This document shows positions 1 to 52,061 of a stretch of DNA of 64,000 nt, piece by piece. The notes below the pieces were generated by a model. That model searched no databases. It had not been told where the DNA came from and saw nothing but the letters and a program-made list of their open reading frames with translations. Both the position numbers and the translations under genes were made by a program. Location: NCBI RefSeq assembly GCF_054482595.1, contig NZ_CM137008.1; one strand, written 5' to 3'. Numbering within the stretch: the first letter of the stretch is position 1; each line of letters opens with the position of its first letter.

Positions 1-254
1 TTTTTATGCTGTCGTCGGAGCTGCGCGGCGTCCCCTTTATCAATCTGAAGTCCGATCCACAAAAATCCCTGTTAAATCAGCAGATATACCCGAGCATTAA
101 GCCAGGGTATCACATGAATAAAAAGCACTGGATTTCGGTGTATCCCGGCGAGGCAATCTCCGAAGCGTTACTTCGCGATCTGATCAACGATTCGTGGAAT
201 CTGGTGGTTGATGGTCTGGCTAAACGCGATCAAAAAAGAGTGCGTCCAGGCTAA
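1..254 (+). CDS. ybdF: YbdF-like DUF419 protein, C-terminal part; gene begins upstream of the window
   Basis: ORF 6..254 (82 aa) is open to the window edge and sits directly upstream of nfsB as in K-12; identity from synteny and recalled sequence. Confidence 0.6.
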
Positions 255-347
255 AGCGGAAATCTATAGCGCATTTTTCTCGCTTACCATTTCTCGTTGA
301 ACCTTGTAATCTGCTGGCACGCAAAATTACTTTCACATGGAGTCTTT

Positions 348-1001
348 ATGGATATCATTTCTGTCGCCTTAAAGCGTCATTCCACTAAGGCATTTGATGC
401 CAGTAAAAAACTTACCCCGGAACAGGCCGAGCAGATCAAAACTCTCCTGCAATACAGCCCATCCAGCACCAACTCCCAGCCGTGGCATTTTATTGTTGCC
501 AGCACGGAAGAAGGTAAAGCGCGTGTTGCCAAATCCGCTGCCGGTAATTATGTGTTCAACGAACGTAAAATACTTGATGCCTCGCACGTCGTGGTGTTCT
601 GTGCAAAAACCGCGATGGACGATGCCTGGCTGAAGCTGGTTGTTGACCAGGAAGATGCTGATGGCCGCTTTGCCACGCCGGAAGCGAAAGCCGCGAACGA
701 TAAAGGTCGCAAGTTCTTCGCTGATATGCACCGTAAAGATCTGCATGATGATGCAGAGTGGATGGCAAAACAGGTTTATCTCAACGTCGGTAACTTCCTG
801 CTCGGCGTGGCGGCGCTGGGTCTGGACGCGGTACCCATCGAAGGTTTTGACGCCGCCATCCTCGATGCAGAATTTGGTCTGAAAGAGAAAGGCTACACCA
901 GTCTGGTGGTTGTTCCGGTAGGTCATCACAGCGTTGAAGATTTTAACGCTACGCTGCCGAAATCTCGTCTGCCGCAAAACATAACCTTAACCGAAGTGTA
1001 A
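348..1001 (+). CDS. nfsB: Oxygen-insensitive NAD(P)H nitroreductase NfsB
   Basis: ORF 297..1001; the second Met gives a 217-aa protein [26 protein letters not shown]..., matching recalled NfsB. Confidence 0.92.
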
Positions 1002-1010
1002 TTCTCTCTT

Positions 1011-1035
1011 GCCGGGCATCTGCCCGGCTATTTCC
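1011..1035 (+). terminator. Putative intrinsic terminator downstream of nfsB
   Basis: Hairpin gccgggca / tgcccggc followed by a T-rich run (tatttcccc). Confidence 0.45.
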
Positions 1036-1060
1036 CCTCAGATTCTCCTGATTTGCATAA

Positions 1061-2356
<1,296 letters not shown>

Positions 2357-2357
2357 T

Positions 2358-2392
2358 TAAAAAAACCGCTCTCATCGAATGGATGAGAGCGG
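2358..2392 (-). terminator. Intrinsic terminator for pheP (hairpin shared by convergent ybdG and pheP)
   Basis: Hairpin ccgctctcatc...gatgagagcgg; on the minus strand it is followed by a run of 8 T. Confidence 0.65.
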
Positions 2393-2423
2393 ACATCGTT
2401 TTGTCGGATGTAGCGTGAATGCC

Positions 2424-3800
2424 TTATTTCCGACGCAGCGTTTTAAATGCCACAAACAGGAATACAATCCACACCGGCAGCAGGATCGCTGACAAGCGCA
2501 TATCATCCATCGTGCACATCAGCAGCAAAATCATGCCGAGGAAGGCAATGCAAAGATAGTTGCCGAACGGATAGAGCAGCGCCTTAAACTGTGTTTCACG
2601 CCCCTGACGTCGCATCGCTGCACGAAAACGCAGATGCGCCAGACAGATCATAATCCAGTTCAACAGCAGCGTTGCTACCACCAGCGCCATCAGCAGACCA
2701 AACGCTTTTTGCGGCAGCAGATAGTTGATTAATACCACCAGCGAAGTGATCGCTCCGGAAAGCATCAGCGAGTTAATCGGCACACCGCGACGGCTGACGC
2801 GAGTCAAAAACTTCGGCGCATTACCCTGCACAGAAAGGCCAAACAGCATGCGGCTGTTAGAGTAAACCCCGCTGTTATACACTGACAGCGATGCTACCAG
2901 AATGACGAAGTTCAGCGCAGAAGCTACCACGTTGCTGTCGAGATTATGGAAAATCATCACAAACGGGCTACTGTTGGATTTCACTTCCACCCACGGATAG
3001 AGCGCCAGTAAAACCACCAGTGAACCGATGTAAAACAGCAGGATGCGATACACCACCTGATTTACCGCTTTTGGAATGCTTTTTTCCGGATCGCGCGCTT
3101 CAGCGGCAGTAATCCCAATCAGCTCCAGACCGCCGAAGGAGAACATAATTACCGCCAGCGACAAAATCAGCCCATTCCAGCCGGTGGCAAAGAAACCACC
3201 GTAGCGCCAGAGGTTGTCGATACTGGCTTTCTCGCCGCCGTGACCAGAAAACAGCAGCCACAGGCCAAAGCCGATCATACCGATGATCGCCAGCACTTTA
3301 ATCAACGCAAACCAGAACTCGGTTTCGCCATATAAGCGCACGTTCACCAGGTTAACGGCGTTGATGATAATAAAGAAGGCGGCAGCCCAAATCCACGTTG
3401 GAACATCCGGGAACCAGTACTGCATATAGATGCCCGCAGCGGTCAGCTCTGCCATCCCCACCAGCACGAACATCACCCAGTAGTTCCAGCCAGAGAGGAA
3501 GCCCGCGAACGGTCCCCAGTATTTATAGGCAAAGTGGGCAAACGAACCGGATACCGGCTCTTCGACCACCATCTCGCCGAGCTGGCGCATAATCAGGAAA
3601 GCGATGATCCCGGCGACGCCGTAGCCCAGCAATACAGCCGGACCCGCCATCTGAATCGCCGGGCCAATGCCAAGAAACAGACCAGTACCAATTGCGCCAC
3701 CCAGCGCAATCAGTTGAATATGACGGTTATGTAATCCGCGATGAAGCGTCGGCTCTTGATTCGACGCAGTATCTTCCGATACGGTTGACGCGTTTTTCAC
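2424..3800 (-). CDS. pheP: Phenylalanine-specific permease PheP
   Basis: ORF 2424..3836; probable GTG start at 3798-3800 gives 458 aa (.KNASTVSEDTASNQEPTLHRGL...); multi-pass membrane amino-acid permease. Confidence 0.88.
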   Translation of the reverse strand: MKNASTVSEDTASNQEPTLHRGLHNRHIQLIALGGAIGTGLFLGIGPAIQMAGPAVLLGYGVAGIIAFLIMRQLGEMVVEEPVSGSFAHFAYKYWGPFAGFLSGWNYWVMFVLVGMAELTAAGIYMQYWFPDVPTWIWAAAFFIIINAVNLVNVRLYGETEFWFALIKVLAIIGMIGFGLWLLFSGHGGEKASIDNLWRYGGFFATGWNGLILSLAVIMFSFGGLELIGITAAEARDPEKSIPKAVNQVVYRILLFYIGSLVVLLALYPWVEVKSNSSPFVMIFHNLDSNVVASALNFVILVASLSVYNSGVYSNSRMLFGLSVQGNAPKFLTRVSRRGVPINSLMLSGAITSLVVLINYLLPQKAFGLLMALVVATLLLNWIMICLAHLRFRAAMRRQGRETQFKALLYPFGNYLCIAFLGMILLLMCTMDDMRLSAILLPVWIVFLFVAFKTLRRK

Positions 3801-3901
3801 GCCTTTCCCCTGTGTGTCTTTTTTGTTGAGGGGCACCTTTTAACATTTAGTGCCCATCGTCGCAAGACACAATCCACACGGTTAAACGGGGTATCCTGCT
3901 T

Positions 3902-6900
3902 TTATTTCCGTACCCGATGTCGGTGCAGCCACATCAGCTTATACGCCGCCGGGATAATAAACAGCGACAGCAAAGGTGCGGTGATCATGCCGCCAATCAT
4001 CGGTGCGGCGATCCGGCTCATCACCTCTGACCCTGCTCCTGTTCCCCACAGAATCGGCAGCAGACCAGCGATAATCACCGCCACCGTCATCGCTTTCGGG
4101 CGCACGCGCAGTACCGCGCCGTGATACAACGCCTCATCCAGCTTCTGCTCACTGAATGTTTGCGGATTATTCAACGACGGCTCGGCCTCTATGGCGTGAC
4201 GTAAATACATCAGCATCACCACGCCAAATTCGGCGGCGACCCCGGCAAGGGCAATAAAGCCAGTACCCGTCGCCACGGAAAGATGAAAGCCCATCCACCA
4301 CAGCAACCAGATGCCGCCCACCAGCGCAAACGGTACGCTGCTGATAATCAGCAACGCTTCGCCCACCCGACGGAATGCCAGATACAACAGCACGAAGATG
4401 ATCATCAGTGTCATCGGCACCATGAGTTTCAGCTTATGGTTGGCGCGCTCCAGTAGCTCGAACTGCCCGGAGAATGCCACGCTGGTGCCCGGTTTTAACT
4501 GCACTTTTTCAGCTATCGCTTTTTGCAAATCGTGAACCACCGACACCATGTCACGATCGCGGGCATCGATATAAATCCAGCTCGTCGGGCGCGCATTCTC
4601 GGTTTTCAGCATCGACGGTCCGGTAGAGACTTTAACGTCGGCCACGTCTGCCAGGGTGATTTGCTGCTTCATCGGCGTCAGGATCGGCAACTGGCGCAGT
4701 GCCTGCGGACTATCGCGCCAGCTTTGCGGATAACGCAGATTAATGGGATAACGGGCAATCCCTTCCACCGTTTCGCCAACCATCGCCCCGCCCACCGCAG
4801 AAGTCACAAACAACTGCACATCCGCCACCGTCATACCGTAACGCGCGGCTTTTTCACGGTTAATCTCAACGTTGATATAGCGCCCACCTTCCAGACGCTC
4901 GGCAAGCGCAGAAGCCACGCCTGGTACCGTTCGTGCCACCTCTTCAATTTGCTCCGCCATCGCGTCGATATCCGCCAGCACAGTGCCGGAAACTTTAATG
5001 CCGATGGGGCTTTTAATGCCAGTCGAGAGCATATCGATACGGTTACGAATTGGCGGCACCCACAGATTCGCCAGCCCCGGCAGCCGCACGGTGTTATCCA
5101 GTTCCTCAATGATTTTGTCCATCGTCATGCCAGGCCGCCACTGATCCTGCGGCTTAAGCTGGATGGTCGTTTCTACCATCTCCAGCGGAGCAGAATCGGT
5201 GGCGGTTTCCGCTTTCCCGGTTTTGCCAAATACCCGCGCCACTTCAGGTACGCTCATAATTAGCTTGTCGGTTTTTTGCAGCATACTCGCCGCCTCTGCT
5301 GCGGAAATCCCCGGCAGCGTCGATGGCATATACAACAGGTCGCCTTCATTGATCTGCGGTAAAAATTCCCCGCCAACTTTATTGAGCGGCCAGAGAACCG
5401 TCAGCACCGAAAGCGCTGCCACCAACAGCGTGGTTTTCGGCCAGTGCAGTACTTTCAGCAACAGCGGATGATAAACACGAATCAAAAAGCGATTGAGCGG
5501 GTTACTGCTTTCCGGCGGAATTTTGCCACGGATCCAGTAACCCATCAGGATAGGGATCACTACGATCGCCAGCAGCGCCGCACCCGCCATCGCATAGGTT
5601 TTAGTGAACGCCAGCGGGCCAAACAGACGCCCTTCCTGCCCTTCCAGGGTGAAGATCGGGATAAACGACAACGTGATAATCAGCAGACTGATAAACAGCG
5701 CCGGCCCCACTTCAACAGACGCATCGGTGATCACCTGCCAGCGCGTTTTATTATCCAGCGTGGCGTCAGGATGCTGGTGCTGCCACTCTTCCAGCCGTTT
5801 ATGTGCATTTTCGATCATGACGATAGCGGCATCGACCATCGCCCCGACGGCAATCGCAATGCCGCCCAACGACATAATATTGGCATTCAGTCCCTGGAAG
5901 TGCATGACAATAAAAGCAATACACAACCCCAGCGGCAACGAAATAATCGCCACCAGCGCCGAGCGCACATGCCAGAGAAACAGCGCACAGACTACCGCCA
6001 CCACAATAAACTCTTCCAGCAACTTGCCGCTGAGGTTGTCGATGGCGCGGTCAATGAGCTGGCTGCGATCGTATGTTGTAACTATCTCCACGCCTTCCGG
6101 CAGACTACTTTTCAGCGTTTCCAGTTTGTCCTTCACGGCGGCGATCACTTCTCGGGCGTTTTTGCCGGATCGCAGGATCACCACCCCGCCCGCCACTTCA
6201 CCTTCGCCATTCAGTTCGGCAATGCCCCGGCGCATCTCCGGGCCAATCTGGACCTTCGCAACATCACGCAGATAAACGGGCACGCCATTTTCACTGGCTT
6301 TTAAAACGATGTGATTAAAGTCGTCGAGCGTTTGCAGATAGCCGCTGGCGCGCACCATATATTCCGCTTCCGCCAGTTCGATCGACGAACCGCCCGCTTC
6401 CTGGTTTGAAGCATCCAGCGCGCTTTTTACTTCGGCTAGACTGATGCCATATTGCGCCAGGCGCTGGGGATCGATAACCACCTGATACTCTTTCACCACG
6501 CCGCCCACCGACGCCACTTCCGCAACGTCAGGGATGGTTTTTAGCTCATATTTGAGAAACCAGTCCTGCAATGAGCGTAAATCGGCCAGATCGTGCTTAC
6601 CGCTGCGATCCACCAGTGCATATTCATAGATCCAGCCAACACCCGTGGCATCTGGTCCCAGCTCGGCGCTGACTCCCGCAGGCAGCTTACCCTGTACCTG
6701 GTTGAGGTACTCCAGCACCCGCGAACGCGCCCAGTACGGATCGGTACCATCTTCGAAAATGACATACACATAAGAGTCTCCAAACTGCGAGAAACCGCGC
6801 ACAGTCTTCGCGCCAGGCACCGACAACATGGTGGTGGTTAGCGGATAAGTCACCTGATTTTCAACGATTTGCGGTGCCTGACCGGGATAGCTGGTTTTAA

Positions 6901-7045
6901 TAATCACCTGCACATCGGAGAGATCCGGCAGCGCATCCACTGGCGTGTTAATGATGGTCCAGGTGCCCCAGATGCTCAGAAACAACGCGCCCATCAGCAC
7001 CAAAAAACGGTTCGCCACCGAGCGACGAATAATCCATTCAATCAT
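3902..7045 (-). CDS. cusA: Cu(I)/Ag(I) RND efflux pump CusA
   Basis: 1047-aa ORF with an RND transporter profile; sits at the end of the cusCFBA order. Confidence 0.93.
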
Positions 7046-7056
7046 TGGTTATTCCC

Positions 7057-8280
7057 TCAATGCGCATTGGTAGCACTTTCAGAGCGCATCCGCTCCAGTG
7101 CGCCAGAAATATTGGCTTCGGAATCAATCAGGAACAGGCCGCTGGAAACCACCTTTTCACCTTCCGCCAGACCAGAGTGTAACGCGGTGACGCCTTGCGA
7201 TGCCTGGAAAACGGCAACGCGTTTCGGTACAAAGCGTCCGTCGGCATCAACGGTAATCACCCGCTGTTCGTTGCCGGTATCAATCAGCGCCTGTGACGGA
7301 ATGAGCAGCATCGGTTCGCTGGCGGTATTGAGTTGCAACCAGGCGTTCATGCCCGGTTTTAGCGCCTCGTCGGCGTTGTCGACTTCCAGACGCAGCTGCA
7401 GCGTGCGGGTCGCGGCATCCACGCCAGGTAGCAGCGTCCATTTGCGGATGGTGAGTGTTTTATCCGGTCGCGCCGGAACGGTGAGGGTAAACTGCGAGGC
7501 ATCTTTCACCAGCCAGGCGATGGACTCCGGGATCGCAGCAGTGACCCACACCGGGTCCATACCCTGAATTTTCGCGACCACGTTATCTTTGGCGATATTC
7601 ATTCCCGCGCGCAGATCAAACGCGGTGATCACGCCATCAATGGGCGCTTTGAGCGTAAAGCGAGTCTGGATTTTTTGCGTGGCGATCAGGCGGCGAATAT
7701 CCGCCTCCGGCATTCCCGCCAGTCGCAGCCGCTCAAGAATGCCTTCAGTCTGGGTCGCCGTACCGCCGGTTTCGCGCAGCAGTAAATACTCAGTCTGCGC
7801 TTCCACCCAGTCAGGAATGGTCAGGTCGAGAAGCGGTGTGCCCTTTTGTACTTTATCGCCCACGGTAAGCGGATACACCTTGTCGATAAACCCGGCAGCG
7901 CGAGCCTGCACAATGGCATACTGATACTCGTTGTAACTGACATTCGCCGGGAAACTCTGGGCAAAAGTCAGCGGTCCGCGCGTGACGGTAGCCGTTTTCA
8001 CCCCCAGATTCTGCGTCTGAGTCGGGTCAATGCGCACACCAGACGCAGAACTCTCTTCATCGGCATATTTCGGCACCAGATCCATATCCATAAACGGCGA
8101 TTTACCTGGTTTATCGAACCGCATATTGGGATACATCGGGTCGTACCAGAATAAGATTTTACGTTCTGCGGTCGACGTTTTTTCTGCAGGCGGTTCCGCC
8201 TTTGCAACCCAGGTAAAACCTGCCGCAGAAATAATACCGCCCGCGATCATGCTGCCGATAATAAGCGCGATTTTTTTCAT
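7057..8280 (-). CDS. cusB: Periplasmic adaptor (membrane fusion protein) CusB
   Basis: 407-aa ORF between cusF and cusA. Confidence 0.9.
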   Translation of the reverse strand: MKKIALIIGSMIAGGIISAAGFTWVAKAEPPAEKTSTAERKILFWYDPMYPNMRFDKPGKSPFMDMDLVPKYADEESSASGVRIDPTQTQNLGVKTATVTRGPLTFAQSFPANVSYNEYQYAIVQARAAGFIDKVYPLTVGDKVQKGTPLLDLTIPDWVEAQTEYLLLRETGGTATQTEGILERLRLAGMPEADIRRLIATQKIQTRFTLKAPIDGVITAFDLRAGMNIAKDNVVAKIQGMDPVWVTAAIPESIAWLVKDASQFTLTVPARPDKTLTIRKWTLLPGVDAATRTLQLRLEVDNADEALKPGMNAWLQLNTASEPMLLIPSQALIDTGNEQRVITVDADGRFVPKRVAVFQASQGVTALHSGLAEGEKVVSSGLFLIDSEANISGALERMRSESATNAH

Positions 8281-8295
8281 CTCATTAAACCTGGG

Positions 8296-8628
8296 TTACT
8301 GGCTGACTTTAATATCCTGTAATAAAGAAAGGTTGCCCTGCTGGACAAAATTAAACGCCACTTTGTCGCCGGTTTTAATTTCACTCATTTTCGTCTGCGG
8401 GGTGATGGTAAAGCGCATGGTCATCTCCGGCCAGTTCACAGCAGCAATCGGATCGTGATGGATGGTGATTTTTTTGCTTTCCAGATCAATACCCTTTACC
8501 TCGCCAGTGGCACTAATAACCTGTGGTTGTGCTTCGCTCATGGTTTCATGATGATGTTCGTTAGCCTGGGCATTAAAGCCAATAACGGTAAACAGACTGA
8601 ACATTGCGACTTGCAGTGCTTTTTTCAT
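8296..8628 (-). CDS. cusF: Periplasmic copper/silver chaperone CusF
   Basis: 110-aa ORF with a signal peptide and a His/Met-rich segment (NEHHHETMSEAQPQV). Confidence 0.9.
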   Translation of the reverse strand: MKKALQVAMFSLFTVIGFNAQANEHHHETMSEAQPQVISATGEVKGIDLESKKITIHHDPIAAVNWPEMTMRFTITPQTKMSEIKTGDKVAFNFVQQGNLSLLQDIKVSQ

Positions 8629-8651
8629 TTATTCTCTCCTGGAGTTAAAAG

Positions 8652-10034
8652 TTATTGCTGCCAACCGCCACCAAGTGCGGTATATAAAGAAATTTCGTTA
8701 ACCTGACGGGCATAATTCAGGTCAAGTAAAGTTTGTCGGGTTGCAAATAACGAACGTTCGGCATCCAGCACTTCCAGATAACTTACTGCGCCGTGCTGAT
8801 ATAATGCCCGCGCCCGTTGCAAAGTAATTTGCAGCGATGCCAGATAACGCTGCTGGGCGCTAATTTGATCGTTCAGGCTTTGACGTAATGCCAGCGCATC
8901 TGCCACTTCTTTAAAGGCGTTCTGGATTTTCTGTTCATAATTCACTACCGACTGCTGCTGGCGAATTTCGGCGATATCCAGATTGGCCTGGTTGCGTCCG
9001 GCATTAAAAATGGGGATCTCAATTTTAGGAATAAAATTCCACATCCCGCTGCTGGCGTTAAATAATGACGACAGATCGCTGCTGGCGGTTGATATTCCGC
9101 TGGTCAGGCTTATAGATGGGAAAAATGCCGCGCGTGCGGCCCCAATATTGGCATTAGCCGCCATTAACGCGTGTTCAGCTTCCATAATATCCGGGCGCTG
9201 CAATAAGATTTGCGACGACAAGCCCGCCGGTAATTTAACGCTTTGCAGGCTGTCGCTGTTTACTGTCTGCGCTTGCGGCAGCTTGCCGTAGCTTCCCAGC
9301 AACAGTTGCAATGCATTATTCGCCTGCGCCAGTTCCCCCTGACGTTTAGCGATGTCGCTGCGGGTACTTTCTATCACCCCGCGAGCCTGTTCCAGCGCCA
9401 GAACATTACTGCTACCTGTCAACAGTTGTTTTTCGACAAACGCATATGACTGCTGATAATTACGCAGCGTTTCTTCAGCTATTTGCAATTGCGCATACGC
9501 CAGTTGCTGATTGAAATAGCTTTGCGCGACATTAGAAACCAGCAGAATATGCACCGCGCGCTGAGCTTCCTCAGTGGCTAAATAATTTTGGCGCTCGGCT
9601 TCGCTCATGTTCTTTAAGCGACCGAAAAAATCGAGGTCAAAGCTGGCGTTAAGGCCGGTCGAAAACTCCCGTGTCGTGGCGGTATTCCCTTTAAGATTAC
9701 CGCTCCAGCTGCCGCTGCCCTCGCCATTGAGCTGTGGGTAGCGGTCGGAATCGGTCAGACGATATTGCGCCCGTGCCTCCTGCACTTTCAGCGTCGCCAT
9801 GCGCAAATCCCGGTTATTCACCAGCGCCTCGCTAATCAGCGTCTTCACCTGATTATCAACAAAAAAGGTGCGCCAGCCCGCGTTCTGATAGTTATCTGCT
9901 GCGTTAACGAGGCCGTTCTGGCTGAGTGAGAACTGCTGCGGTACGGGCATTGCCGGGCGCTGATAATCCGGTGCCAGTGAACAACCGGTTAGCGCAAGGG
10001 CCACACAAAATGGCAGAAGTTTACAAGGAGACAT
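8652..10034 (-). CDS. cusC: Outer-membrane efflux channel CusC (lipoprotein)
   Basis: 460-aa ORF with a lipobox (LALTGCSL); first gene of the cusCFBA operon. Confidence 0.9.
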   Translation of the reverse strand: MSPCKLLPFCVALALTGCSLAPDYQRPAMPVPQQFSLSQNGLVNAADNYQNAGWRTFFVDNQVKTLISEALVNNRDLRMATLKVQEARAQYRLTDSDRYPQLNGEGSGSWSGNLKGNTATTREFSTGLNASFDLDFFGRLKNMSEAERQNYLATEEAQRAVHILLVSNVAQSYFNQQLAYAQLQIAEETLRNYQQSYAFVEKQLLTGSSNVLALEQARGVIESTRSDIAKRQGELAQANNALQLLLGSYGKLPQAQTVNSDSLQSVKLPAGLSSQILLQRPDIMEAEHALMAANANIGAARAAFFPSISLTSGISTASSDLSSLFNASSGMWNFIPKIEIPIFNAGRNQANLDIAEIRQQQSVVNYEQKIQNAFKEVADALALRQSLNDQISAQQRYLASLQITLQRARALYQHGAVSYLEVLDAERSLFATRQTLLDLNYARQVNEISLYTALGGGWQQ

Positions 10035-10103
10035 AGGCTCATAATTTCTGGTGATTTTATACCGCCAACTTTACTCGCCAGGCTCTGATATTCCGGTGAC
10101 AGG

Positions 10104-10125
10104 AAAATGACAAAATTGTCATTTT
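10104..10125. promoter_or_regulatory. CusR box in the cusC-cusR divergent promoter region
   Basis: Near-perfect palindrome aaaatgacaaaattgtcatttt in the 156-bp cusC/cusR intergenic region; matches the recalled CusR recognition site. Confidence 0.75.
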
Positions 10126-10190
10126 GCCAATAAGCGATTGCCATCTGATCCCGCTACTCTAGAATTGCCCGGGCAACATGCGGAGGAAAT

Positions 10191-10874
10191 ATGAAACTGT
10201 TGATTGTCGAAGATGAAAAGAAAACCGGAGAATACTTGACCAAAGGGTTAACCGAAGCCGGTTTTGTGGTCGATTTGGCCGACAACGGGCTGAATGGCTA
10301 CCATCTGGCGATGACCGGTGATTATGATCTGATAATCCTCGATATTATGCTGCCGGACGTGAACGGCTGGGATATCGTGCGCATGTTACGCTCCGCCAAT
10401 AAAGGGATGCCGATTCTGTTGCTTACCGCGCTTGGCACCATTGAACATCGCGTCAAGGGGCTGGAGTTGGGGGCAGATGACTACCTGATGAAACCATTCG
10501 CTTTTGCTGAACTGCTGGCGCGGGTGCGCACTCTCCTGCGGCGCGGGGCGGCGGTGATTATCGAAAGTCAGTTTCAGGTTGCCGATCTGATGGTCGATCT
10601 CGTCAGCCGCAAAGTCACCCGCAGCGGCACGCGCATCACTTTGACCAGTAAAGAGTTTACTCTACTGGAGTTTTTTCTCCGCCATCAGGGTGAAGTGCTG
10701 CCCCGCTCGCTTATCGCCTCGCAGGTATGGGACATGAATTTCGACAGCGATACCAACGCTATTGATGTGGCGGTGAAGCGGCTACGCGGCAAAATCGACA
10801 ACGACTTTGAGCCAAAGCTGATTCAAACCGTGCGCGGCGTGGGTTACATGCTTGAGGTGCCGGATGGTCAGTAA
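10191..10874 (+). CDS. cusR: Copper-responsive response regulator CusR (OmpR family)
   Basis: 227-aa ORF with a receiver domain (MKLLIVEDE...LDIMLPD) and winged-helix output domain. Confidence 0.92.
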
Positions 10875-12306
10875 GCCATTTCAGCGCCCGTTTTCGCTGG
10901 CAACCCGCCTGACCTTTTTTATCAGCCTGGCCACCATCGCGGCGTTTTTCGCCTTTGCATGGATCATGATCCACTCAGTAAAAGTGCATTTTGCCGAGCA
11001 GGATATTAATGATTTAAAAGAAATTAGCGCCACCCTTGAACGGGTACTTAATCATCCTGACGAGACGCAAGCCCGACGCTTAATGACGCTGGAAGATATC
11101 GTCAGTGGTTATTCCAATGTGTTGATTTCCCTGGCAGATAGCCACGGCAAAACGGTGTATCACTCCCCCGGTGCGCCCGATATCCGCGAGTTTACGCGTG
11201 ACGCCATACCCGATAAAGACGCGCGGGGCGGCGAGGTGTATCTCCTTTCCGGCCCGACGATTATGATGCCAGGGCACGGTCACGGGCATATGGAACACAG
11301 CAACTGGCGGATGATTAACTTACCGGTTGGCCCGCTGGTTGACGGCAAACCGATTTATACGCTCTACATCGCGCTTTCGATCGATTTTCATCTTCATTAC
11401 ATAAATGATTTGATGAATAAACTTATTATGACCGCATCGGTAATCAGCATCCTGATTGTCTTTATCGTGCTGTTGGCGGTACATAAAGGTCACGCGCCGA
11501 TCCGCAGCGTCAGCCGTCAAATCCAGAATATCACCTCGAAAGATCTCGACGTTCGCCTTGACCCGCAGACCGTGCCGATTGAGCTGGAGCAGCTGGTACT
11601 GTCGTTCAACCATATGATCGAGCGTATTGAGGATGTCTTTACCCGCCAGTCCAATTTCTCAGCGGATATCGCTCACGAAATTCGCACGCCGATTACCAAT
11701 CTCATCACGCAAACGGAAATCGCCCTCAGCCAGTCTCGCAGCCAGAAGGAGCTGGAAGATGTGCTCTACTCTAATCTCGAAGAGCTGACGCGAATGGCGA
11801 AAATGGTCAGCGATATGCTGTTTCTCGCCCAGGCCGATAACAACCAGTTAATCCCCGAAAAGAAAATGCTCAACCTGGCGGATGAAGTCGGCAAAGTGTT
11901 CGATTTTTTCGAGGCGTTAGCGGAAGATCGCTGCGTGGAGTTGCGATTTGTTGGCGACGAATGTCAGGTTGCGGGCGATCCGCTGATGCTGCGTCGGGCG
12001 TTAAGCAACCTGCTTTCTAATGCCCTACGTTATACGCCACCCAGTGAGGCTATTGTAGTGCGCTGCCAGACGGTCGAGCATCAGGTGCAAGTTATCGTCG
12101 AAAACCCCGGTACTCCCATTGCGCCCGAGCACTTACCGCGTTTGTTTGACCGTTTCTACCGCGTTGATCCTTCCCGCCAACGAAAAGGCGAAGGTAGCGG
12201 CATTGGGCTGGCGATAGTGAAATCGATTGTTGTCGCGCATAAAGGCACGGTTGCGGTTACGTCAAATGCGCGGAGGACAAGGTTTGTTATCACATTACCC
12301 GCTTAA
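10864..12306 (+). CDS. cusS: Copper/silver sensor histidine kinase CusS
   Basis: ORF 10852..12306; start at Met5 gives 480 aa; H-box ([13 protein letters not shown]) and ATPase motifs; start overlaps the cusR stop. Confidence 0.9.
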
Positions 12307-12455
12307 TTATTCAGCAAACGGCAACTTTTATAACCAGTGTAAAAATAACGTGCCGCAATAGTCATACCTATTAATGGTAAAAAGCTGTCACAATTCATAA
12401 AAAACCTTAATATACGCCACCCTAAACATAACCAGCGTTAATGTAAGGTTTTTGT

Positions 12456-48585: not shown

Positions 48586-50367
48586 TTATTCATAGTGCAT
48601 GAAGCAGGTTTCAGTCGGTGCATCCGCTGCGTTATCGGCGATATCTTCAAATTCCATGACGTTATCCAGTTCGCTGCCCATCGAAATATTTGTCACACGC
48701 TCGAGAATAACTTCCACGACTACCGGTACCCGATATTGCGCCATTAAGGCTTTCGCCTGTTCAAAGGCCGGTGCAATATCTTCCGGTTTGAAGACGCGAA
48801 TAGCTTTACAACCTAAACCTTCCGCTACTTTTACGTGGTCGACGCCGTAACCGTTCACTTCGCTGGAGTTGATATTCTCGAAAGCGAGTTGCACGCAGTA
48901 GTCCATGTCAAAGGCGCGTTGTGACTGACGAATCAGACCGAGATAGGCGTTGTTAACCAGCACATGGATGTACGGAATGTTGAACTGCGCGCCAACGGCT
49001 AACTCTTCAATCAGGAACTGGAAGTCGAAGTCACCGGAAATCGCCACCACATTGCGTTTCGGATCAGCGGCACAAACCCCCAGCGCCGCCGGAATCGTCC
49101 AGCCTAACGGACCAGCCTGACCACAGTTGATCCAGTGGCGGTCTTTAAAGACATGCAGCATTTGTGCCGCAGCGATTTGTGACAGACCAATGGTGGTGAC
49201 ATAACAAACATCGCGACCAAAGGCTTTGTTCATCTCTTCATACACGCGCTGCGGTTTCACCGGCACGTTGTCGAAGTGGGTTTTGCGCAGCAAAGTGCGT
49301 TTGCGCTGCTGGCAGTCGGCGACCCATTCTTTACGACACGGCAGACGACCCGCTTTTTGCATCTCCTGCGCCACTTCAACCAGCAGTGTCAGCGCCGCTT
49401 TAGCATCAGAGACAATGCCGAGATCCGGACACAGCACGCGGCCAATTTGCGTCGGCTCAATATCGATATGAACGATTTTGCGCCCTTCGGTGTATTTCTC
49501 TACCGAACCGGTATGACGGTTAGCAAAACGGTTACCGATACCAAACACCATGTCGGACGCCAGCAGCGTTGCGTTACCGTAACGATGCGCGGTTTGCAGA
49601 CCGACCATCCCGGCCATCAGTTCATGATCGTCCGGGATACAGCCCCAGCCCATCAGCGTTGGGATCACCGGAACGCTGGTCAGTTCAGCAAACTGTTGTA
49701 ACAGTGCAGCTGCGTCAGCATTGATTACCCCGCCCCCGGCAACAATCACCGGACGTTCGGCCTGGATTAACATTTCTACAGCTTTTTCGATCTGCATACG
49801 GCTGGCAGCAGGTTTGTAGACCGGCAGCGGTTCGTACATGTCAGGATCAAACTCGATTTCCGCAACCTGAACGTCGAACGGTAAATCCACCAGTACCGGA
49901 CCCGGACGACCAGAACGCATCAGGTGAAATGCCTGTTGCAGCACGCGAGGCACCAGCGCCGCTTCACGAACTGTAACCGCCATTTTGCTGACCGGTTTAG
50001 CAATTGCTTCAATATCTACGGCCTGAAAATCTTCTTTATGCAGACGGGCGCGCGGAGCCTGGCCGGTAATGCACAGAATAGGAATGGAATCAGCAGAAGC
50101 AGAATAGAGCGCGGTGATCATGTCCGTGCCCGCAGGACCGGAAGTCCCCAGACATACGCCGATATTCCCTGCCGTTGCGCGGGTATAACCTTCCGCCATG
50201 TGCGAAGCACCTTCCACATGACGCGCCAGAATGTGACGAATACCGCCGTGCTTACGCATCGCTGAGTAGAACGGATTGATTGCAGCTCCCGGAACACCGA
50301 AGGCGGTGGTGATACCTTCTTTCTCCAGCACATACATTGCCGCGTCAACGGCTCTCATTTTTGCCAT
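48586..50367 (-). CDS. gcl: Glyoxylate carboligase Gcl
   Basis: The 623-aa ORF is an upstream over-extension; the real start is Met31 ([19 protein letters not shown]...), giving 593 aa; ThDP-dependent enzyme. Confidence 0.92.
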
Positions 50368-50387
50368 TTTATTCCTACCTCTATTTA

Positions 50388-50404
50388 TTGGAAAATTTTT
50401 CCAA
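50388..50404. promoter_or_regulatory. AllR-type operator in the gcl promoter
   Basis: Perfect 17-bp palindrome ttggaaaatttttccaa about 20 bp upstream of the gcl start codon. Confidence 0.7.
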
Positions 50405-50456
50405 CTTTCAAATTTTGTCAAAAAAACCCGCTCCGCAGAGCGGGATGCGACAGACA

Positions 50457-51272
50457 TTATGGATGTGCTTTCAGTCCCAACGCCGTGCTGATATCGCGGG
50501 CGGTGTCTCTGACCAGCTCACCCTGACTGACAAAACGGTCTTCTGTCAGTCTTGATGAAGGCCCGGAGATGGAGATAGCGGCAACAACGCTACCTACATC
50601 ATCGTAAATTGCTGAAGCTATGCAATTCAGACCTACAACATGCTCTTCTTTATCTACGGTATAGCCCAGTTCACGCGCTTGTTCCAGGTCCTTCAGCAAG
50701 GTGGGCATATCCACAAACGTAGTTGGCGTAAACTGCTGCAAACCGGTTTGCAGAATGATGCTCATCAACTCCTCTTCCGCCAGCGGATAAAGCAGCGCTT
50801 TGCCCGCACCGGAAGCATGCAGTGGCAGACGACTGCCCAGTGGCGCACACATCCTGACCATCGATTTACACTCTAACTGACCAATTAATACCGCTTCATT
50901 GCCGTTACGGATCGCGACATTGACCGTTTCGCCGGAAAGTAACATCAGGCGGCGCATAAACGGCCCGGCGACGGAGAGGACATCGCGGTTATGGATGTAC
51001 GCTGCACCGACGTTAAAGACACCTAATCCTATATGCCACCAGCCTAACTGACTGTCCTGATAGACAAAATCCGCTGCCTGTAAAACCTTCAGCAAGCGAA
51101 AGGTCGTGGAGAGCGGCAAATCCAGATTGAGAGAAATATCGCTAACCGACGAACTTCCCCCACTTTTTTCCAGATATTGCAGAATCGCAATTCCCCGCTC
51201 TAATGCCTGTGCGCCCTTCTGTGCCACAGGCTCCGCCTGTCCTGGCCTGCCGCGCCGTCTAACTTCCGTCAT
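50457..51272 (-). CDS. allR: Allantoin/glyoxylate repressor AllR (IclR family)
   Basis: 271-aa ORF with an N-terminal HTH and IclR effector domain. Confidence 0.9.
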
Positions 51273-51349
51273 ACCTACGTTAACTCCGACCTACAAGTGA
51301 GCATAAACAATGAACAATTAGTTTATCTTATGCAAGTCGGTTGCAGGCG

Positions 51350-51832
51350 TCACGCAAAACAGAGTTCCTGTTCAGGAATACTTTCAACATCACAGTTGTC
51401 ACTGCCGCCGCGATCGATGGTCAGAAAATCGGTGACGCGCTGCCAGGCGAAAAGTGGGTGATGCCAGACGTTACGATGGTAATTCACTCCCTGTTCGCCG
51501 TTGGTAATAAACGCCCGCAGGGTTGACAGGTCTGGTTTGTCGTCACCTAACGCCACGACCACCACAAACACCTCACCTTTCATCGGGATAAAGGCCTGAG
51601 TACCCAGCGGATGACGTTCGAGTTCGTGAATGGTCAGCGGCAGATTCGCCGGTTGCGCGCGGTTAATGCTGATAAGCGTACGGTCTTGCTCAAGAATCTC
51701 AACCAGCGCCAAATCGTGGTAACGCTCCACCAGGCCATTGTTAATATGGAAAAAATCCCGTTGCTGCGTTTCGATTACGTCGCCATAAGCACTAAAGGCT
51801 TCCTGACTTAACGGTAATACCTGAAGTTTCAT
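51350..51832 (-). CDS. allA: Ureidoglycolate lyase AllA
   Basis: 160-aa [24 protein letters not shown]... Confidence 0.88.
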
Positions 51833-51937
51833 CTTTTTGTCCTTGTAACATAATTCCGTTCAACCAGCGCCGACCGGTCAGCTTGGTTTCAATAACAGGC
51901 AATCTAAAACCTTAAGAGAACAACATCAATACAAAAG

Positions 51938-51954
51938 TTGGAATATTTTTCCAA
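51938..51954. promoter_or_regulatory. AllR-type operator in the allA-allS divergent region
   Basis: 17-bp palindrome ttggaatatttttccaa, a near-copy of the gcl-promoter palindrome, in the 229-bp allA/allS intergenic region. Confidence 0.7.
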
Positions 51955-52061
51955 AACTAGATTTAGTCCACAAATTGAACAGGGTTATCATGTAAAAATA
52001 CTGATAAATCAGAGGATAAGAAAATCACGCAACTTGCGGATTTAAAAGGGGATACCTGAAG

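Follow-up and report, generated by a model that had tools for sequence, protein, structure and literature searches.

Which protein, if any, reads the two near-identical palindromes found in the allantoin/glyoxylate gene cluster of this Escherichia coli strain, and is the switch to which they would belong still complete? The window (the whole stretch of DNA that was analysed, 64,000 nucleotides or 64 kb) contains the E. coli allantoin/glyoxylate cluster in an orientation reversed relative to K-12, and the two sites lie in the gcl upstream region and in the allS-allA spacer, with allR between them. The stretch carrying the sites matches 5,404 of the 5,426 complete E. coli genomes, where the genes are annotated gcl, allR, allA, and allS. 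We conclude, with a probability of about 95%, that the two palindromes are operators of AllR, the IclR-family repressor encoded between them. This assignment is based on the sequence and uniqueness of the sites, their context, their identity to K-12, their conservation, a motif scan, the architecture of the regulator, and published sites, and in these no evidence contradicting AllR was found. The sites and their genes are given below, the gene positions being those of an annotation carried over from a strain 99.99% identical across window positions 32001-64000.

48586-50367, minus strand: gcl, glyoxylate carboligase, which opens the operon under the control of site 1 (transferred annotation)
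50388-50404, no strand assigned: site 1, assigned as the AllR box of the gcl operon promoter, TTGGAAAATTTTTCCAA
50457-51272, minus strand: allR, IclR-family repressor, 271 aa, intact (transferred annotation)
51350-51832, minus strand: allA, ureidoglycolate lyase, controlled by site 2 (transferred annotation)
51938-51954, no strand assigned: site 2, assigned as the AllR box common to the divergent allS and allA promoters, TTGGAATATTTTTCCAA
52062-52988, plus strand: allS, intact, under the control of site 2; encodes the LysR-type activator of the allD and allF operons (transferred annotation)

Site 1 is fully palindromic, with an 8-bp arm on either side of a single centre base, and site 2 is identical to it at 16 of 17 positions, the single differing base breaking one arm pair and leaving seven of the eight pairs. 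A gap of 20 nt separates the former from the gcl ATG on its downstream side, and one of 16 nt from the annotated 3' end of the small RNA AllZ on its upstream side; the latter sits at approximately the midpoint of the divergent spacer, the start codons of allA and allS being 105 and 107 nt away, respectively. The preliminary description had placed two near-identical 17-bp palindromes at exactly these coordinates and had considered them the only copies of the motif in the window. Both statements hold: its pattern, TTGGAANNNTTTTCCAA, has two matches in the 64-kb window, both being the two sites (chance expectation of zero matches in 100 dinucleotide-preserving shuffles), and the full 17-mer with up to three mismatches also returns the same two sites only (0.37 expected). 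The exact TGGAA-N5-TTCCA core occurs at these two sites only, and its matches with one mismatch number two, at 2975 and 9027, which corresponds to chance level; arithmetic gives an expectation of about 0.04 chance matches of the motif in 5 Mb. A repeat finder ranked the pair as the top direct-repeat family of the window, its members 1550 bp apart, and, with one copy inverted, a shared AAAG flank lengthens the similarity to 21 nt. No third box was found upstream of allR, allD/allF (fdrA), or glxK/allE, even when four mismatches were allowed.

The regulator encoded between the sites has the architecture expected of a protein that binds such sequences. Operators of the IclR family are recognized as inverted repeats of approximately 15-19 bp with a regulator of HTH_IclR/IclR_C composition encoded nearby, and both features are found here: the AllR homologues carry the Pfam domains HTH_IclR (PF09339) and IclR_C (PF01614), and AllR matches PDB entry 1TF1, the AllR effector domain, with an E-value of 6e-110. 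Relative to K-12, AllR carries a single substitution (F186 in this strain, L186 in K-12) and AllS two. Both boxes and the entire allR-gcl spacer are identical to those of K-12 MG1655, and identity to that strain is 99.3% over the 1,851 bp surrounding the sites, the sole spacer difference being at position 51867, in the allS-allA spacer and far from the box. The window sites are thus identical to the AllR operators of K-12 (532,329-532,345 and 533,879-533,895; Rintoul et al. 2002), serve the same genes with the same spacing, and neighbor allR in the same way; there are no site differences, and the changes of this strain are confined to AllR, AllS, and the one spacer base.

The published binding sequences point in the same direction. 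In Table 1 of PMC8222616 the AllR motif is KTTGGAAWAWTWTTCCAAC, with a reference to Rintoul et al. (2002), and the supplement of PMC8222616 lists K-12 AllR sites at -124 for allS (gTTGGAAtATTTTTCCAAA), at -124 for allA (TTTGGAAAAATaTTCCAAc), and at -39 for gcl (gTTGGAAAAATTTTCCAAt), the last of which corresponds to window positions 50387-50405. In addition, a 37-mer is presented as the "AllR recognition site" and attributed to Rintoul et al. (2002) in PMC13300388; it is the reverse complement of the window sequence around site 2.

51928-51964, minus strand: 37-nt "AllR recognition site", AAATCTAGTTTTGGAAAAATATTCCAACTTTTGTATT, with the box at its centre and 10 nt on each side (PMC13300388)

Both 17-mers fit TTGGAAWAWTWTTCCAA exactly and, when their flanks are included and they are compared with KTTGGAAWAWTWTTCCAAC, the allS-allA site (minus strand) agrees at 19 of 19 positions and the gcl site at 18 of 19. 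The preliminary description had located the palindromes exactly where AllR is known to repress and had proposed a comparison with published footprints. As far as the footprint is quoted in these later papers, the comparison bears it out, the gcl promoter region and the allS-allA spacer being the places of the published K-12 sites, with the same sequences. Its statement that the wiring of the regulon is intact is likewise sustained, since the strain has the genes for repressor and activator, the two operators, and the target operon, as in the K-12 model. The AllR sites and their locations in E. coli are therefore already known; they appeared in print in 2002, and a comparative genomics study arrived at them again in 2021. 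A ChIP-seq compendium places AllR among the highly specific factors, those with one or few sites far above background. Genomic SELEX reportedly gave further and weaker AllR targets, such as artP, and, given these reported targets, the regulon may extend beyond the two sites.

The preliminary description had also held that many additional copies of the motif at unrelated loci would speak against its reading. A species-wide scan for TTGGAAWAWTWTTCCAA (14 specified bases and three W positions) was run on a collection of 100,044 species genomes, one per species (298 Gb), a volume in which arithmetic predicts approximately 140 or more chance sites; its results are the 120 exact matches sampled, and E. 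coli itself is outside the listed matches. Among these 120, the copies elsewhere are of the kind that chance provides: 115 are single copies in unrelated, mostly low-GC genomes, and two copies were found at no non-allantoin locus. Five loci among the matches listed encode homologues of Gcl, AllR, AllA, and AllS. Four of these (three from Citrobacter and one from Providencia) have one copy in each of the same two spacers, at a distance of 1548-1647 bp, and the fifth, from Superficieibacter, is a truncated locus.

The distribution of the regulator was then compared with that of the sites. The identity of AllR homologues drops sharply from 63% to 57% or less, and below this step lie one truncated fragment and then IclR-like paralogues (45% or less); in this protein similarity search, recognizable AllR orthologues were confined to genera of the Enterobacterales. 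Eight loci of about 8.8 kb each were picked by AllR protein similarity alone (63-90% identity), namely those of Salmonella, Enterobacter, Izhakiella, Buttiauxella, Rahnella, Serratia, Yersinia, and Pragia. All eight have the arrangement allA-allR-gcl-hyi-glxR, and the gene divergent from allA is of the LysR type in seven of them and of the GntR type in Pragia. In seven of the eight, a box with at most one mismatch is found upstream of gcl and another upstream of allA, and these seven ~8.8-kb loci hold no other box with three or fewer mismatches. Rahnella has its two sites with three and two mismatches, the TGGAA/TTCCA core being intact at the allA site, together with two further three-mismatch matches, one box-like and located in the divergent spacer and one unrelated. 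Its allS-allA spacer (locus L127, 3277-3326) shows two box-like sequences, ATGGAATATTTTTCCAT and TTGGAAAAAGTTTCTAC, 33 bp apart, where the other genera have one. In Pragia fontium (locus L130, 2188-2931), a GntR/UTRA-type gene replaces the LysR-type allS, and the AllR box before allA is kept.

Overall, both box positions are occupied in 13 of 13 genera, eight of them chosen by protein similarity alone. In alignments of these 13 genera anchored on the box, with flanks of 25 nt, mean agreement with the consensus inside the box was 0.93 for gcl and 0.92 for allS-allA, and that of the flanks 0.54-0.76; the high agreement of the left flank at gcl corresponds to the allR terminator. Of the 26 sites, 24 keep the TGGAA-N5-TTCCA core unchanged, and the differences among sites cluster in the five bases at the centre. 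This profile shows a pattern of recognition that, as judged from the alignments, would rest on the TGGAA/TTCCA arms and leave the five central bases free to vary. Comparative genomics had already described the same AllR site layout in Salmonella, Klebsiella, and Shigella (PMC8222616 supplement). The sites predicted in that work have the same two-site layout as those reported here, with one site common to allS and allA and one approximately 37-39 nt before gcl, and the present analysis widens it to Izhakiella, Buttiauxella, Rahnella, Serratia, Yersinia, Providencia, and Pragia.

It could be argued that the boxes primarily serve IclR, a paralogous repressor that also senses glyoxylate and reads a very similar palindrome, rather than AllR. 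IclR is the nearest solved paralogue of AllR (1TD5 and 2O99; E-value of about 4e-44), and the published IclR motif, TGGAAATNATTTCCA (PMC8222616 Table 1), has the same outer TGGAA/TTCCA arms and the same spacing. However, neither site fits this box of the aceBAK repressor, 12 of the 14 specified bases being matched at gcl and 11 of 14 at allS-allA, with mismatches at inner arm positions; moreover, the boxes accompany allR, not iclR, in every genus examined, and the literature assigns both sites to AllR. The IclR box of the aceBAK/iclR promoters resembles the AllR box in being a 15-bp AT-rich palindrome with TGGAA/TTCCA outer arms, in belonging to the same regulator family, and in sharing glyoxylate as effector, but differs from it in the inner arms (A/T in place of T/A), in the paralogue that reads it, and in the target genes. 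We regard a primary role of IclR at these boxes as very improbable.

The sequences themselves could also act in a manner unrelated to an AllR-type repressor. Each box folds as RNA into a stem of 6-8 bp (-6.5 and -5.4 kcal/mol), which is what would be needed if the palindromes were hairpins, acting as attenuators or stability elements in the gcl and allS/allA leaders. Nevertheless, such folds are no better than those of shuffled controls (z of -1.4 and -1.9), and the proposal was rejected for this reason; the inferred allA start, which lies downstream of the box, would also leave the box outside the allA transcript. The arms are almost invariant across the 13 genera and show no compensatory changes, a pattern that argues for sequence-specific recognition of DNA by a protein and not for an RNA stem, so that a hairpin function retains a negligible probability. 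As to chance, single exact copies of the motif do arise in AT-rich genomes, as illustrated by the 115 lone copies among the 120 matches listed, and AT-rich palindromes might also be generic promoter or UP-element sequence with no dedicated regulator. Yet zero copies are expected in the window, and all 13 genera have a copy at each of the two positions, with flanks that diverge; these conservation data effectively refute such an origin, which is hardly credible.

According to the K-12 literature, the N-terminal winged helix-turn-helix domains of AllR attach it to each TGGAA-N5-TTCCA inverted repeat and, when glyoxylate is lacking, the bound repressor keeps off the gcl-hyi-glxR-allW-allB-ybbY-glxK operon together with the divergent allA and allS genes. 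In K-12, glyoxylate is the inducer that releases AllR from DNA, and allantoin is a co-repressor that strengthens binding. Binding of AllR and its release by glyoxylate are carried over here from that literature to window sites of identical sequence, and would be expected to proceed in the same manner. Because the product of allS activates the allD and allF operons (PMC12535856), the single central site would also gate the oxamate branch indirectly.

How the boxes would exert this control depends on where they lie relative to the promoters. A consensus promoter scan yielded no credible promoter for gcl, allA, or allS. Its one match, TTTCCA-17-TAAAAT, was rejected as the gcl promoter, as its -10 element overlaps the gcl start codon. 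Mapped start sites for gcl are absent from the supplement of the AllZ paper, and none for gcl, allA, or allS was found in any source; hence, all of the promoter geometry that follows was read from the sequence. The elements concerned are the following.

50416-50421, minus strand: putative gcl -35 element, TTGACA (read from the sequence)
50420-50654, minus strand: sRNA AllZ (b4831), comprising the 3' part of allR and its terminator (K-12 annotation)
50427-50444, minus strand: allR intrinsic terminator, hairpin and T-run (terminator scan), the upstream bound of the gcl control region
51901-51929, minus strand: putative allA promoter, TTGATG-17-TAGATT, with the -35 element at 51924-51929 and the -10 element at 51901-51906

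The gcl control region is only 89 nt long and consists of the terminator, about 15 nt, the box, and then 20 nt with the ribosome-binding site. The small RNA AllZ, which has been validated by northern blot (PMC8175672), has its 3' end in the T-run behind the allR terminator hairpin, and terminator, AllZ end, gcl promoter, and operator are thus all packed into these 89 nt. The hairpin and its T-run are kept at a fixed distance from the gcl box across genera. Two models of the gcl promoter may be drawn. In one, TTGACA is followed after 17 nt by AAATTT (-10 element at 50393-50398), so that the -10 element would fall within the box and transcription would start about 2-4 nt past it; in the other, TTGAAA (50406-50411) is followed after 17 nt by ATAAAT (50383-50388), and the box would be the spacer. 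As the box falls inside the gcl core promoter in either model, bound AllR would exclude RNA polymerase.

The geometry of the allA side is less simple. Both of the putative allA hexamers are kept in the genera closest to E. coli, and they would place the centre of the box at about -52, just upstream of the promoter, with the 37-nt site quoted above overlapping the -35 element by 2 bp. For a repressor of allA that works by simple occlusion, a centre at about -52 is unusual, and repression of this gene probably depends on the wider 37-nt AllR site.

A further sequence block adjoins the central box, from which it is separated by 2 nt on the allS side.

51957-51972, minus strand: conserved block, TGTGG-N6-TCTAG

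In the 13 genera it recurs as TGTG(G/C/A)-N6-TCT, with Enterobacter and Providencia showing it less clearly, and its centre lies at about -70.5 from the inferred allA start. The block resembles a CRP-type half-site, and no known regulator assigned to TGTG-N6-TCT was found. One could suppose that a tetrameric AllR loops the two operators together and/or acts as an anti-activator through this adjacent block, a proposal that we consider unlikely. Such a loop would enclose allA-allR, and the distance of about 1.55 kb between the boxes recurs in the four other allantoin loci with two copies (1548-1647 bp). Anti-activation, in turn, would draw on the fact that the box adjoins a possible site of a candidate activator, possibly of the CRP/FNR type, which may carry an anaerobic or nitrogen signal acting on allS.

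Within E. coli, the two boxes differ in their variability. The 32-mer centred on the gcl box is found exactly in only 2,063 of the 5,426 genomes; that on the allS-allA box is present in 4,757 genomes and exact in 4,633, and the box itself was invariant among the strains sampled. The five variant strains sampled all have A in place of T at position 50396, the centre base of the gcl box, where both the window and K-12 have T, and a second T>A substitution, linked to the first, sits just beyond the box at 50386 in the same five. Since an A at 50396 turns the gcl box into its own reverse complement, the change is neutral for a symmetric dimer, and the T/A polymorphism at the centre of this box, common in E. 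coli, leaves its symmetry untouched. Insertion sequences were also encountered near this box and its gene. In E. coli MS 198-1 (locus L137, 3111-4565), an IS4 element lies in the allR terminator, between allR and the AllR box of gcl, with the box and gcl intact, and in strain 100416 (locus L133) the 3' end of gcl is truncated beside an IS1 element.

Other features of the window deserve mention, apart from the allantoin cluster. Positions 1-19530 hold nfsB, ybdG, pheP, cusCFBA, cusRS, nfrBA, ybcH, and envY. At the argU tRNA-Arg gene (19533-19609) no prophage is present, envY directly abutting the tRNA (18726-19609); in strain XH990, the argU spot is occupied by a lambdoid prophage with the integrase gene intD beside the tRNA, and in K-12 the element at this spot is DLP12. 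Two genes carry in-frame stops, nfrB (12456-14693, plus strand) at codon 387 and sfmD, a fimbrial usher gene (22033-24642, minus strand), at codon 172, and both are marked as pseudogenes in near-identical strains.

These results confirm an intact glyoxylate/allantoin switch in this E. coli strain, although with little weight beyond annotation. What they add to the known AllR sites is minor: the layout in more genera, the symmetry-neutral polymorphism at the centre of the gcl box, and the conserved block beside the allS-allA box. The separation of conserved arms from a variable centre could help those who build glyoxylate biosensors on the gcl promoter. For the family, the comparison of loci shows a two-operator layout that, to judge from its recurrence in every genus compared, would be ancestral to the Enterobacterales genera that carry allR.
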